64,000 nucleotides of DNA, taken from Okamejei kenojei (taxonomy: Eukaryota). Of the stretch, positions 1,621-41,065 are shown piece after piece; position 1 is the stretch's first letter; each line of letters begins with the position of its first letter. Location: positions 19,778,001 to 19,842,000 of the forward strand of contig CM069157.1 in the NCBI GenBank assembly GCA_035221665.1, in the 5' to 3' direction. Under the pieces are notes generated by a model. It was not told the DNA's origin. It did not search any database and was given only the letters and a program-made list of their open reading frames with translations. Both the position numbers and the translations under genes were made by a program.

Positions 1621-2044
1621 GTGGATGTTGAACCCCCAAATTTTGCAGATATTATACCTCATTTTGGGACACCAGATATTGACCTATTTGCGTCCAGGCT
1701 GAACCATCGAATACCAACGTATGTGTTGTGGGAACCAGACCCTGGGGCAATAGCAATGGATGCGTTTTTATCCATTGGGGGAAATGGTTTGCTACGCATT
1801 TCCCCCATTCTGCCTCACCAGTCGGGTATTGCAGAAAATTAAACTAGACTCTGCAACTGGCATATTGATCATTCCCGACTGGCCTATACAAACCATGGTA
1901 CCCGATGGTTGTAGAAATTTTAAAACAACCATGGATGGCGATTGGGAAACATCCCAAATTGATTACTCACTCCATTACGGGGGGGGGGGGGGGGTCAGTC
2001 ATCCTTGCCATGGTCATTTAAACTTGTTGGCCTGCAGGTTCTGA
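1621..2044 (+). pseudogene. DIRS DNA N6-adenine methyltransferase-like domain, frameshifted
   Basis: TPDIDLFASRLN (SAM-binding motif I-like), CYAFPPF (motif IV-like) and GILIIPDWP, directly after RNase H as in DIRS1 elements. Confidence 0.82.
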
Positions 2045-2069
2045 AAGACCACTCATCCGGTCAGGCATC

Positions 2070-2998
2070 TTGTTAAGAGCCATAGACCTTATCGCCGCAT
2101 CATGCCGAGAATCAACTCGGAAACAATACCTCACCCAAATCAGAAAGTGGGAGGCATTCTGTGCCCGGACCAACAAGTCTTCCAACTGGGCAACAATACC
2201 TGATGTGTTGGAGTTTCTAGCAGGCCTCCATTTCGATGCTGGCCTCAGCTACAGTGCCATCAACAGCGCCAGGAGTGCGCTGTCCTCATACCTGGATATA
2301 GGTGTCGGCTCCAACCACCTGGTGTCTAAACTAATGAGGGGAGTGTTCAACACCAACCCTCCACGACCCAGATATACAGTAACGTGGGATGTGGGGATCG
2401 TGCTGACCCTACTGAGGAGCTGGGCTCCAATAGATGAGCTACCACTGAAACAGCTCACCCTCAAGGTGGTGATGCTTATGGCACTGACTACAGCCCAACG
2501 AGCCCAGACGTTACAGAAACTGCGACTGGACAGCATGGTGGCCACCCCGGTCAAATAAATTTCTTTGTCAAAGAATTATTAAAACAGCACAGGCCAGGGG
2601 CGCATGGGCTGCAGTTGGAATTTCGGGCGTACCCTGTGGATGCCACTCTCTGCATAGTCACCCAACTCCACCACTACATCCGAGTTACTGGAGTTATCAG
2701 GATGAAGGAACAGGGGCTTCTCATCAGCCACAAACCTCCACATCATCGGGTGACTGTACAGACTATCGCCAGGTGGCTCAGGGTGGTGCTGGATGCAGCA
2801 GGAGTTGCTACTAACATTTTTAAGTCCCATTCCACCAGGGCTGCATCCATATCAGCAGCGAGAGCCATGGAGGTGCCCATGGACCACATTCTCGCCACCG
2901 CGGGCTGGGCCAGGGGGGAAAACCTTTCAACGGTTTACAACAAGCCTCTGGCCGCCCCTGCGACATTCGCAGAAGCTATCCTGGGTACCGCTCAGTAA
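2070..2998 (+). pseudogene. DIRS tyrosine recombinase (YR), frameshifted near 2555-2615
   Basis: LSYSAINSARSALS, PRYTVTWDV, TTAQRAQTL (catalytic R), SHSTRAAS (HxxR), AGW, YNKP (catalytic Y). Confidence 0.9.
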
Positions 2999-3590: not shown

Positions 3591-4067
3591 TCAATGAATG
3601 CAGTTTAGTCCTGTATGTAGTTCCACCTCCTGTTTTTGTGAGAGATTAAATTTAGCCCTCAATTTCAAGAGTTCAAGAGTTCAAGACAGTTTATTGTCAT
3701 GTGTCCCAGATAGGACAATGAAATTCTTGCTTTGCTTCAGCACAACAGAATATTGTAGGCATAAATAAATACACAACAGATCAGTGTGTCTATATACCAT
3801 TGAATATATTTATACACACATAAATAAGCATATAAAGTGCAATAGGTTATTAAAGTTCAGATTTTTGTTTCAGTTGCGTTTAATAGTCTGATGGCTGAGG
3901 GGATGTGGCTGTTCCTGAACCTGGATGCTGCAGATTTTAGGCTCCTGTATCTTCTAACTGTGTGTGGTGGCCAGGATGGTGTGGGTCCTTGATGATGCTG
4001 CCAGCCTTTTTGAGGCAGCGACTGTGGTAGATCCCCTGGATAGTAGGGAGGTCAGAGCAGATGATGG

Positions 4068-6149
4068 GGGGCTGTCTCTGTCTTACAGATGATGGGGGGC
4101 TGTCTCTGTCTTACAGGAACAGTTTCAGCAAACAGACTGGAGTCTGTTTGCCACCCAGGCCACCTTCAACTCCCATGTGGACATCAACTCATACACCTCA
4201 ACCGTTCTGGACTACATAAAATTCTGCACGGACAACGTCACTACACACAAAGTAATAAGGACCTTCCCTAACCAGAAGCCGTGGATGAACAGGGAGGTCA
4301 GACTCCTGCTGAAGGCTCGCGACGCCGCTTTTAAATCTGGCGATGCTGAGGGTTACAGCTCATCCAGGGCCAATCTGAAAAAGGGAATTAGGAATGCTAA
4401 ACTTAATCACAAACGGCGGATTGAGGAGCATTTCCGAAATAACTCTGACCCCAGGCGCATGTGGCAAGGAATCAAATCCATTGCCGATCACCATAAAGTT
4501 AACACTCCCCCCCCAGACAATGCCTCCCTTCCTGACGAGCTAAACTATTTCTACGCCCGCTTCGACCGGGACAACAAAACTCCTGCCATCAAAGGTGCTC
4601 CACCCCCGCATGAACAACCCCTCAGTCTCTCCACCTCTGCTGTTCAGGATGCACCGAGCAAGGTGAATGAGCACAAAGCTGCCGGCCCCGATGGCATCCC
4701 CGGGCGGGTGCTCAGGGCATGTGCTGGACAACTATCCCTGGTCCTCACTGACATCTTCAATCTGTCACTGGCCCAGGGTGTCGTCCCCACTTGCCTCAAG
4801 ACATCTACCATTGTGCAAGTGCCCAAACAATCAGCAACAGGGAGTCTCAATGATTTCCGGCCAGTGGCACTCACCCCTGTCATCGCCAAGTGCTTCGAGC
4901 GGCTGATCTTGGCTCACCTCAAAGCCAGCCTCCCCCCCACACTGGACCCCCATCAGTTTGCCTACCGGACCAATAGGTCAACAGAAGACGCCATATCTGC
5001 GGCCCTACACTCTGCCCTGACCCACCTGGACAGCAATAACACCTACATCAGGCTGCTGTTCATCGACTTCAGTTCCGCCTTTAACACTGTCATACCCGCT
5101 AGCTTGATCACCAAACTCAGCGGTCTTGGCATCTCCACTTCCCTCTGCAATTGGACACTGGATTTCCTCACTAACAGACCCCAGTCTGTTAGGATCAACA
5201 ACCTCACCTCCTCCACTATAACACTGAACACTGGCGTGCCACAAGGCTGTGTGCTCAGTCCTCTCCTCTACTCTCTCTTCACCCATGACTGCATCCCTAA
5301 GTTTAGCTCCAACGCCATCATAAAATTTGCCGACGACACCACGGTGGTAGGACTGATCAGCGATAACGACGAGTCAGCCTACAGGGAGGAGGTCCAGCAC
5401 CTGACAACCTGGTGTGCCAATAACAACCTCGTCCTTAACTCCCAAAAGACGAAGGAGATCATTGTCGACTTCAGGAAGAACAGAGGGGGCAGACACACCC
5501 CCATCCATATAAACGGGACTGAGGTGGAGCGGGTCTCCAACTACAAATTCCTCGGGGTACACATCTCGGAGGATCTGTCCTGGTCCCTCAACACCTCCAA
5601 GCTGGTCAAAAAGGCGCAGCAGCGCCTTTATTTCCTGAGGAGGCTCAAAAAAGCCCACCTGTCCCCTCAGATCCTGACCAACTTCTACCGCTGTACCATC
5701 GAAAGCATCCTGACCACCTGCTTTACGGTCTGGTACAGCAGTTGCACCGTAGCAGACAGGAAGGCACTACAACGGGTGGTGAAAACCGCCCAGCACATCA
5801 TCGGTGCCCCGCTCCCTGCTTTGGATGCCCTCCACCGAAAACGGTGTCTGAGACGGGCTGGGAAGATCATCAAGGACCCCTCCCACCCTAACCATGGACT
5901 GTTTGCCCTCCTACCATCGGGGAGGCGGTACAGGAGCCTCAGGTCCTGCACCAGCAGGATGAGGAGTAGCTTCTACAATAACACGATCGCACTGCTGAAC
6001 TCGGAGTCCCGCCGATAGATTCCCACACCTGTATTTATTTATCTGCATTTATCTAAACATTGCTATCACTACGTACTGACACTAAACTGCATTTCGTTGT
6101 ACCCATACTTGTATCTGTGCAATGACATTAAATTTGAATTGAATTGAAT
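4068..6149 (+). mobile_element. Young 5'-truncated Rex1/Babar-clade LINE
   Basis: Uninterrupted RT frame, short 3' UTR and (TTGAA)n tail. Near-identical to the copy at 60474-61888. Confidence 0.92.
4096..6018 (+). CDS. Non-LTR reverse transcriptase (Rex1-type), open frame, no APE endonuclease and no ATG (5' truncated)
   Basis: [64 protein letters not shown]. Confidence 0.92.
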   Translation, partial: GAVSVLQEQFQQTDWSLFATQATFNSHVDINSYTSTVLDYIKFCTDNVTTHKVIRTFPNQKPWMNREVRLLLKARDAAFKSGDAEGYSSSRANLKKGIRNAKLNHKRRIEEHFRNNSDPRRMWQGIKSIADHHKVNTPPPDNASLPDELNYFYARFDRDNKTPAIKGAPPPHEQPLSLSTSAVQDAPSKVNEHKAAGPDGIPGRVLRACAGQLSLVLTDIFNLSLAQGVVPTCLKTSTIVQVPKQSATGSLNDFRPVALTPVIAKCFERLILAHLKASLPPTLDPHQFAYRTNRSTEDAISAALHSALTHLDSNNTYIRLLFIDFSSAFNTVIPASLITKLSGLGISTSLCNWTLDFLTNRPQSVRINNLTSSTITLNTGVPQGCVLSPLLYSLFTHDCIPKFSSNAIIKFADDTTVVGLISDNDESAYREEVQHLTTWCANNNLVLNSQKTKEIIVDFRKNRGGRHTPIHINGTEVERVSNYKFLGVHISEDLSWSLNTSKLVKKAQQRLYFLRRLKKAHLSPQILTNFYRCTIESILTTCFTVWYSSCTVADRKALQRVVKTAQHIIGAPLPALDALHRKRCLRRAGKIIKDPSHPNHGLFALLPSGRRYRSLRSCTSRMRSSFYNNTIALLNSESRR

Positions 6150-10755: not shown

Positions 10756-11011
10756 ACACAAGCATCTCAAACCACCAAACATCAGTAGCCCAAACTAGAG
10801 CACTCTCAATCTCACTCCAGCACAACCAATCTACTGACCATCTCATTTCCAACGAGAGTCCACTGCACACCCACCCCCCCCCCCCCCCCCCCCCCAATAT
10901 CCACCCACCAAATTCCACCAGTAGCTCAAACTGGAACACTTACTCGAAAACATATGTCCCTATCCCAGCCATGCTACTGACCCTCTTATCCTGGCCGTGA
11001 AGCACCAACCC

Positions 11012-11078
11012 GGGGCTCATGTTGTCGACCTCCCCGTGGTGAGCCCTGTCAACTGACTTCAGTCAGGCGAACGACAAC
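11012..11078 (+). ncRNA. Predicted HDV-like self-cleaving ribozyme (67 nt)
   Basis: GGGGCUC-AU-GUUGUCG-ACC-UCCCCGU-GGU-GAGCCCU-G-UCAA-CUGAC-UUCA-GUCAG-G-CGAA-CGACAAC: P1 with G1.U, P2, P3, 5-bp P4, canonical J4/2 CGAA (C at 11068). Confidence 0.88.
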
Positions 11079-11210
11079 AAACGGAGACAGCAGCAGCGCC
11101 GTAGCTTGGCGCCAACCCGAAGCATGCGCCCTTTTTAGGGCGGGCACCTACGGATGTCGAACCGGATGGCATCACCCTGCTGCGGACTTCTGTTGCCTCA
11201 AACGCAAGAA
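11012..11210 (+). mobile_element. Ribozyme-headed short retroelement, family B (199 bp)
   Basis: 13-bp TSD GAAGCACCAACCC (10999-11011 / 11211-11223). The 3' end ACGCAAGAA is similar to family A. Confidence 0.88.
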
Positions 11211-11312
11211 GAAGCACCAACCCCATCTCCAACCACCCAACTCCCTCGCCAACCAGCTAATCTTTCCAACATCTGATCACAATCCATGAATTCAGATTCC
11301 ATCTCCCTAACT

Positions 11313-39931: not shown

Positions 39932-41065
39932 ATGGCCACCACAGCTTCGGCTCATTACATTCCGAGGAATAACTCGCTCCACTCTAACTCTTTGGTGCAT
40001 CCGGACTCTGACAGGATGCATCCAGGAACTACCTATAGAGAAGTTCAGAAAATGGTACAAAATGACTACTTGCACGGGCTGGCCAGCAATGGGCACCCCA
40101 TCACGCACAGCCACCAGTGGCTGTCTTCTGTCACTGACGGGGCGCCTTGGGTCACCACTTCTCACCTCGGACAGCCAGACCCAGTAAAGGCCACCGTGCA
40201 GACAGCCAGGGATGACCTTGGAAACAGCATCCATCACCGGACACATCATATGGTCCATCAACAGACTCATGGCAACCACCCTGGCGGCGGCTGGGGCACG
40301 GCGGCGGCTCATCACATCCCGGGGATGCCACCGTCCACTAACGGCCACCAGCCGCTCATCTACTCGCAGCCGGGGTTCACCAGCCTCAACAGCATGCTGA
40401 GCCCACAAAGCCAGTCTCTCCACCATGGGATGACGGATGCACTCCACGAGGACCCAGGTGGCCATGACAACCACCAGCAGCATCCTCCGCAACATCACCA
40501 GGACCACTCGGATGAAGATGCGCCCACGTCAGACGACTTGGAGCACTTTGCAAAGCAGTTCAAACAAAGGAGGATCAAGCTCGGCTTCACCCAGGCGGAC
40601 GTGGGCCTGGCCCTGGGCACACTGTACGGCAACGTCTTCTCCCAGACCACCATCTGCAGGTTTGAAGCCTTGCAACTCAGCTTCAAGAACATGTGCAAAC
40701 TGAAGCCCCTGTTGAACAAATGGCTGGAGGAGACTGACTCCACCTCGGGGAGTCCCACCAGCATAGACAAGATCGCTGCCCAAGGGAGGAAGAGGAAGAA
40801 GCGGACGTCCATTGAGATTGGAGTGAAGGGGGCATTGGAGAATCACTTCTTAAAGTGCCCCAAGCCATCGGCTCATGAGATCACCAGCTTGGCTGACAGT
40901 CTGCAGTTAGAGAAAGAAGTGGTCAGAGTTTGGTTTTGTAACAGAAGACAAAAAGAAAAGCGGATGACCCCAGCCGGGATCCCCGGGCACCCAGGGATGG
41001 AGGATGTATATTCACAAAGGGACACTCCGCCGCTTCATCACACACTGCAGTCCCCTGTTCAATGA
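39932..41065 (+). CDS. POU3F1: POU domain class 3 transcription factor 1 (Oct-6/SCIP/Tst-1), intronless, 377 aa
   Basis: ATG in GTCATGG context; complete POU-specific domain and homeodomain ([11 protein letters not shown]). Paralog-diagnostic features: N-terminus [50 protein letters not shown], and C-terminus [15 protein letters not shown]. Confidence 0.93.

Follow-up and report, generated by a model that had tools for sequence, protein, structure and literature searches.

The window, i.e. the whole 64,000-nucleotide stretch analysed here, carries at 11012-11210 one copy of family B, a young, many-copy and still multiplying retroelement which appears to be a ribozyme-headed SIDE that has outlived its parent LINE (V1) and is now copied by a related element (V2). 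On sequence grounds it is hardly in doubt that family B is a SIDE (bipartite non-autonomous LINE) of V1, and a switch of partner from V1 to V2 is probable. The scenario as a whole, in which a V1-derived SIDE has its 5' end cut by an HDV-like ribozyme and is mobilised in trans by a Vingi-type protein, is considered moderately probable.

The first-pass annotation of this DNA had described a 199-bp insert at 11012-11210 between exact 13-nt target-site duplications, with G1 of the fold as the first base after the duplication, and both points were borne out, G1 lying at 11012 (Table 1). Because the first four nucleotides of the duplication (GAAG) are also readable as tail, the true duplication measures 9-13 nt and the insert 199-203 nt. 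Behind the head, about 40 nt of parent UTR are absent between 11095 and 11096 in the alignment to V1 copy L160. The ORF-start remnant reaches the codons just 5' of the APE motif LQLNAEG; four V1 copies (L116, L132, L139, L143) continue from 11183 into the APE ORF, and loose contig ends behind 11183 are found in runs X3 and X15. A stem-loop matching the hairpin of this remnant is present in nine of 13 heads searched, and it overlaps a conserved peptide motif, so that structural and coding constraint are not separated there. The segment 11186-11205 aligns to the 3' ends of L146, L147 and L148 at 89-93% over 24-28 nt, and the stop codon and 3' UTR are readable in L130, L133 and L134. The absence of tRNA A and B boxes was likewise upheld: the tRNA search found no tRNA gene in the element, and no sense-strand B box lies inside it, as judged on the identical copy L002. 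In that copy the B-box pattern occurs within the element on the antisense strand only, with a locus count at chance level (8 against 5.9 expected). The tRNA-like head and A/B boxes of a tRNA-derived SINE were thus not found; what stands in their place is the 5' end inherited from the LINE.

Table 1. Features of the family B copy and its flanks (window coordinates)
Feature	Position	Strand	Basis or remark
5' target-site duplication	10999..11011	+	exact 13-nt repeat of 11211-11223; adjoins G1, as in 70/72 copies
HDV-like head (predicted ribozyme)	11012..11078	+	descriptor match, sub-threshold Rfam RF02682, covariation
P1	11012-18/11041-47	+	with G1.U
P2	11021-27/11072-78	+	one extra pair possible
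P3	11028-30/11038-40	+	
L3	11031-37	+	
P1.1			single pair in family B
P4	11053-57/11062-66	+	assessed by eye
J4/2	11067-71	+	contains C11068 at catalytic position
Parent LINE 5' UTR remnant	11079..11095	+	alignment to V1 copy L160
Start of parent ORF region, non-coding here	11096..11185	+	V1 copies; contig loose ends
Short hairpin, 4-bp G/C stem and 6-nt loop	11128..11141	+	within ORF-start remnant
Parent LINE 3' end: last base of stop codon and 19-nt 3' UTR	11186..11205	+	
(AAG)n tail	11206..11214	+	last 4 nt overlap 3' duplication
3' target-site duplication	11211..11223	+	exact repeat of 10999-11011

Copies letter-identical to the 199 nt of the window number 72 in the 2.76-Gb genome (35 forward, 37 reverse; 0 for the control). 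In the genome searches the best 40-150 candidates were scored; the 1,144-1,453 first-look candidates include older relatives and are therefore not copy numbers. To keep the 5' end from biasing the sample, 30 copies were taken from the 40 that a search with the last 63 nt yielded. Of these, 24 begin at G1, four begin 5-8 nt inside and two are cut deeper, one of them with an inversion, and no upstream sequence is common to the copies of this 3'-selected sample (0/30). Since these copies were picked by the 3' 63 nt alone, the 5' end at G1 that the first-pass annotation expected copies to share is supported. Among 72 distinct copies starting at G1, an exact duplication of 10-13 nt touches G1 in 70; it begins with A or G in 69 of these 70 and is preceded by C or T in 62. 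The duplication extends one or two G into the head in 22 of 71 copies. The (AAG)n tail has mostly 4-6 repeats (71 copies), and tail and target overlap by 1-5 nt in 67 of the 70 duplication-bearing copies. It is from work on L1 that the test of cap copying by an untemplated G derives. No sign of a cap-copied G was seen at the 5' junctions of B: 70 of the 72 copies have no additional base between duplication and G1, and G stands at -1 in only five. These junctions seem to use G microhomology. In two DNA runs contigs break off just before 11012 (109 and 86 contigs); the runs consulted, RNA runs X17 and X18 included, consist of contigs. The dispersed copies with their duplications and tail indicate that B has amplified as a non-autonomous retroelement, and in a sample biased to close copies they lie 0.58% per site from the window copy. 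The words of the element are present in four organisms at a share of 0.68-1.0, the small-share holders (runs X19-X22) being set aside. At sites 11058, 11083, 11102, 11120 and 11184, run X15 (organism D) has almost exclusively the older alleles and run X3 (organism A) a mixture of old and new ones, from which the B subfamily of the window looks lineage-specific.

All helices that had been claimed for an HDV double pseudoknot at the head are present at the positions given in Table 1. The proposed descriptor scan recovered the fold, with two matches in the 64-kb window (the element at 11012 and family A at 10755-10702, minus strand), and found it rarer in shuffles, where 30 windows combined gave one match. 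The Rfam scan had a divided outcome: the best match, RF02682, coincides with 11012-11078 to the nucleotide, yet its 34.1 bits (E 9.4e-05) fall below the gathering score of 44, and no Rfam family reaches its gathering score anywhere in the 64-kb window. As RF02682 is the model of one bacterial family (F. prausnitzii), the sub-threshold score lowers membership of RF02682 and not the fold itself. The two share the same P3/L3 core and all 74 model positions are spanned; the RF02682 family, unlike the B head, is bacterial and not borne by a retroelement. Nested-only folding of the element is unremarkable (z 0.17), as expected of a pseudoknot. In viral HDV ribozymes P1.1 comprises two pairs; V2 also has two, B and family A have one, and with a single pair cleavage in B may be slow. 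U20 and G25 of L3 have functional roles in HDV ribozymes, and across the heads of alignment A2 T20 is invariant and G25 almost so. In the window copy the minimum-energy structure (z -0.23) allows pairing between P4 and the upstream flank. Copy L058 starts at G1 though neither J4/2 nor the P2 3' strand is present in it. Structure and covariation point to cleavage 5' of 11012; the head was very probably an active ribozyme in the source lineage, and cleavage quite probably fixes the 5' end.

Covariation was tested on P1-P3. Relatives of the LINE on metagenome contigs were included (80 of 566 kept), most outside heads coming from few related data sets, and heads were searched for in 16 loci that include the ORF start together with 200 nt or more of upstream sequence. 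The HDV descriptor is passed by four of the 16 loci, 127-220 nt before the match, and a recognisable core pattern is shown by ten (the core check was run on 11 of the 16); of the other six, two seem decayed by eye, two are fragments and two have no head. For eight heads anchored by hand, each from a different lineage, pairing holds in 133 of 134 P1-P3 cells, part of this pairing being circular because the heads were partly selected by their fit to the fold; two-sided change is seen in 14 of 17 pairs, which none of 10,000 shuffles equals. A MAFFT alignment of 11 heads is 95.7% paired against 43-56% in slid controls, and 11 of 15 pairs have changed on both sides (0/500 shuffles), two P2 pairs being left out of this count for misregister. 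The helix covariation anticipated by the first-pass annotation is thus present in P1, P2 and P3 and far above shuffles. When one P1 mismatch was allowed, the descriptor gave spurious antisense matches in coding DNA (L224, L241, L245, L252), which were dropped. The base of P1 is G.U in seven of eight heads and J4/2 has C in all eight. C11068 lies in a CpG and, like other CpG sites, is T in 9 of 29 old genomic copies; despite this decay the source lineage retained it. The heads of B and V2 are identical at 47 of 47 core positions, whereas identity between the LINE ORFs is no more than about 69%. Compared with the majority sequence of 31 old heads of the V1 family, the B head has one difference, at 11058 in the P4 loop. 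Since V1, one site has changed in the 67-nt head versus five in the remaining 132 nt, too few to speak of selection, so the comparisons with V2 and with outside heads were relied on instead.

Among B-like loci no LINE partner was found (0/30 3'-selected, 0/20 5'-selected). A 16-nt motif from the loose ends behind 11183 has 32 exact matches in the genome; of 30 fetched loci four run far into the APE frame and three enter it briefly, while the remainder are mostly SIDEs of greater length with a jump to this shared 3' end. V1 (L146) is about 3.15 kb long with one ORF carrying APE and RT. Nucleotides 19-172 of B align to 568-762 of L146 and 175-202 to 3669-3696, and nucleotides 1-172 align to V1 copy L160. 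After 11185 the 5' end of V1 is joined to its last 20 nt and tail, which makes B a short internally deleted element. Loci L117-L145 include older, longer V1-derived SIDEs with differing junctions; such variety means that V1 made SIDEs repeatedly.

The LINE domains matched are PF14529, PF03372 and PF00078, and many homologues are APE+RT proteins of about 1,000 aa on contigs of 3.1-3.9 kb. No RNase H was detected at E <= 1 in the pieces of V2, V3 and V4 covering RT to the C-terminal region, nor at E <= 0.1 in the V1 pieces. The first-pass annotation had guessed at a GAA-tailed partner of Ingi/Vingi type; a GAA-tailed LINE was found, but the Ingi side fails as RNase H is absent, and the parent is Vingi-like rather than Ingi-like, an assignment of the V1 clade that rests on architecture, the tree being built without named Vingi or Ingi references. 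An RTE parent was rejected with respect to the RTE-type elements of this genome: PF20049, a domain linked to RTE, is absent, and V2 is only 24% identical to those elements along the longest RT match. They form an old family with a GAA-rich tail that is unrelated to B, which has no significant similarity to 15 RTE loci. In PDB and Atlas the matches were confined to unnamed RT clusters and to remotely related RTs of L1, R2 and group II introns. Full-length V1 copies are 83-90% alike, clusters of duplicated loci aside, and 20 V1 copies lie 3.9-8.0% from their majority, the closest pair differing by 7.1%. For the 3' part of V1, the best 40 of 747 candidates are 84-89% identical to the query over the full length, with one partial match at 92%, and contain no young set. 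Judged by these sequences V1 looks long dead, all of its copies found being decayed.

V2 was found by a protein search of the genome (best 150 scored); it is 3.2 kb long and about 69% identical to V1. Five full-length copies lie 0.38-0.82% from their majority, and a further 27 3' ends are at about 100%. Of the last 13 nt of B, 10 agree with the V2 3' terminus; tail length is similar to that of B, and so is the target preference (19 V2 copies), though agreement in target preference does not separate V2 from V1. No unbroken full ORF was found among the V2 copies: the longest frame, of 778 aa, stands in a 5'-truncated copy, three further near-full copies have open frames of 245-358 aa, and full copies have 3-15 indels each, which are either assembly errors or real. 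V2 also gives rise to SIDEs, in which duplications adjoin G1 (L344, L352, L353). One of these, L344, consists only of a 76-nt head, a 9-nt 3' end and the tail. Eight V2 copies (L336-L343) carry an inverted 5' head that begins at nt 84-125 and runs to nt 1-6, which an RNA ending at G1 would lead one to expect, and in seven of the eight it is joined to the V2 3' part. This looks like twin priming concentrated just 3' of the ribozyme. As V1 copies are old and B is still multiplying, the recent burst was most likely driven by V2, and V2, being young and having the same ribozyme core with a similar 3' end and target preference, is likely to be the present driver of B. Cross-mobilisation by V2 is the simplest reading, since the young subfamily of B overlaps in time with V2 and not with V1; an unassembled V1 master or an unsampled LINE is a possible driver. 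V1 and V2 do not group as sisters when 33 proteins are placed in a tree, where a cluster containing sea urchin sequences is as close to V2 as V1 is (P0005, with members from Diadema antillarum, 75% identical to V2 over 292 aa). This hints, at the level of sequence, at separate horizontal arrivals of V1 and V2. Two more Vingi-like lineages, V3 (L181-L185, 91-94% pairwise) and V4 (L186-L189, about 95%), are both GAA-tailed.

Target-primed reverse transcription is the established enzymology underlying the steps proposed here. For transcription, cleavage and priming in trans we infer the following course. Transcription of a B copy would be driven either by a host promoter upstream or by the LINE 5' end that the copy itself carries, and the HDV-like head would cut the RNA just before G1, leaving an uncapped, folded 5' end. 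A Vingi-type APE/RT protein acting in trans, supplied in the recent burst by V2, would bind the short 3' terminus and nick the target near AT(C/T)|A. The (AAG)n tail would serve for priming, helped by microhomology of 1-5 nt with the target, and about 200 nt would be copied through to G1, giving a duplication of 10-13 bp.

The first-pass annotation had called the element promoter-less, which is not supported as worded, as the element keeps the LINE's 5' end and Pr77 of L1Tc is both promoter and ribozyme; missing tRNA boxes consequently do not exclude a Pol II promoter. A first alternative is that an internal Pol II promoter sets the exact 5' end and that trimming or protection of the RNA is all that the ribozyme contributes, in the manner of Pr77. 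The parental 5' end is intact in B, the double function of Pr77 is reported for L1Tc and NARTc (PMC4035085), and Pol II is held to be the polymerase that transcribes bipartite LINEs (PMC5786205). Nevertheless, the 5' end coincides with G1 of P1 in B, V2 and family A alike, an untemplated G is missing from 70 of 72 copies, and conservation tracks base pairs and not sequence, so that this origin of the 5' end is rather unlikely; it is in any case compatible with cleavage. A fold that cuts no longer or too slowly, kept as a structure that binds protein or blocks nucleases, would agree with the single P1.1 pair, with the sub-threshold Rfam score and with the inverted V2 heads, whose priming at nt 84-125 hints that protein holds this region; several trypanosome SIDER1 heads with adequate folds also failed to cut (PMC4035085). 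Short SIDE heads of trypanosomes and of the fly do cut in vitro, however (PMC4035085, PMC3414825), and C11068 was kept in the source lineage though it turned to T in 9 of 29 old copies, the J4/2 position being C in all eight heads, which makes loss of cutting quite improbable.

A chance fold in a tRNA-derived SINE or in an RTE derivative finds some footing in the old RTE-type family with a GAA-rich tail, but a tRNA head is absent, B has no significant similarity to the RTE loci, V2 is far from RTEs and without PF20049, and covariation stands far above shuffles; the alignment to the parent by itself already excludes such an origin, and its probability is practically negligible. As to the driver, an intact V1 master copy, missed in the searches or missing from the assembly, might have powered the recent burst in place of V2: the 3' end of B is V1's own and differs from V2 at 3 of the last 13 nt, only the best candidates were scored, and the assembly is in 1,141 contigs. 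An active V1 should nevertheless have left young 5'-truncated copies, whereas the best 40 of 747 are 84-89% identical, and no pair among the 20 aligned V1 copies is closer than 7.1%; a hidden V1 master is accordingly unlikely, and V2 is preferred as the driver.

The closest parallels are found in trypanosomatids, where RIME (from Ingi), NARTc (from L1Tc) and the SIDERs are, like B, internally deleted, with an HDV-like 5' hallmark and the 3' end of a LINE and, as proposed for B, mobilised in trans. Their parents carry RNase H, measure about 5 kb and belong to protist hosts, whereas the parent of B is 3.15 kb long without RNase H in a vertebrate; the (AAG)n tail of B is also unlike theirs. Heads of NARTco and TvSIDER cut in vitro, and the first 77 nt of L1Tc are an internal promoter and a ribozyme (PMC4035085). 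R2 SIDEs and R2/R1 hybrid SIDEs of Drosophila indicate that a ribozyme 5' end and a LINE 3' end suffice for mobility, the hybrids being ribozyme-headed SIDEs that use the machinery of another LINE (PMC3414825). In contrast to B, which is dispersed and has a seemingly unchanged tail, R2 SIDEs are confined to 28S rDNA and the hybrids have swapped their 3' end. Vingi-1_EE of the hedgehog has non-autonomous internal-deletion derivatives, as V1 has B. Reports of bipartite non-autonomous LINEs exist for RTE, Ingi, Vingi and R2, the 5' end of the parent being usually retained; the list of six ribozyme-bearing clades in the same 2018 paper comprises R1, R2, R4, RTE, Ingi as well as LOA and does not name Vingi (PMC5786205). 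Vingi is a recognised clade (PMC5753468, PMC3391268), distinguished from Ingi by a compact single ORF with APE and RT and without RNase H (PMC13708176). HDV-like ribozymes have been reported in lamprey, lancelet and sea urchin (PMC8256844) and elsewhere in hundreds of dispersed copies (PMC6765202). A table of SINEs and LINEs gives sharks and rays with tRNA SINEs only (PMC3747384), and titles and opening lines of abstracts among the papers found mention no elasmobranch element of this kind; the supplements of Kojima 2011 and Ruminski 2011 may list some.

It can be said that the principle is already known from trypanosomes and Drosophila; family B adds a covarying HDV head in a Vingi-like clade, very recent activity in a vertebrate and a probable switch of driver, and it is a recently active ribozyme-headed SIDE of a vertebrate with its parent and likely driver identified. 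A more tentative suggestion, which we hold possible but somewhat doubtful, is that an orphaned SIDE was revived without exchange of its tail by a separately arrived V2, possibly through horizontal transfer, its fold and short 3' end being recognised. B and V2 have in common an identical ribozyme core and some 10-13 terminal bases; if this suggestion were true, the HDV fold together with a very short 3' end would be what Vingi proteins recognise in a template, and for a Vingi gene writer an RNA of 85-200 nt would be a natural and complete template. The HDV head would then be a general feature of the clade, and elasmobranchs would have self-cleaving SIDEs among their active elements. Vingi-1 is under development as an RNA-templated gene writer (PMC13708176). 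The questions opened are whether Vingi-like 5' ends are self-cleaving ribozymes, whether a SIDE can switch its driver without a change of tail, and what an RNA must at the least contain for a Vingi protein to use it, the last point being of practical interest for the gene writer. The 72 identical copies are candidate markers of insertion polymorphism.

Several neighbours of the element in the window deserve mention. Family A, an element of about 135 nt, has copies at 10755-10617 (minus strand) and 59111-58973, with a minimal HDV-like head of 54 nt with almost no P4 and a GAA tail. Duplications of 8-13 nt flank 18 of 20 copies, and of 551 first-look candidates the top 40 are at 96-100%. No parent LINE was found for it, its 3' end matching none of V1-V4 beyond the tail. 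An intronless POU3F1 gene lies at 39932-41062 (+), about 29 kb from the element; it is 94% identical to a cluster led by the basking shark, 84% to Callorhinchus and, among the matches listed, at most 74% to full-length orthologues of bony vertebrates. These identities make the host an elasmobranch, in line with the cartilaginous fish of the first-pass annotation. At 4093-6149 and 61888-60472 there are two RT-encoding LINE copies, 95.6% alike over 1.4 kb, which are presumably Rex1-like, and open frames at 2022-2995 (+) resemble a tyrosine-recombinase region, which we take to belong to a DIRS-type retrotransposon.
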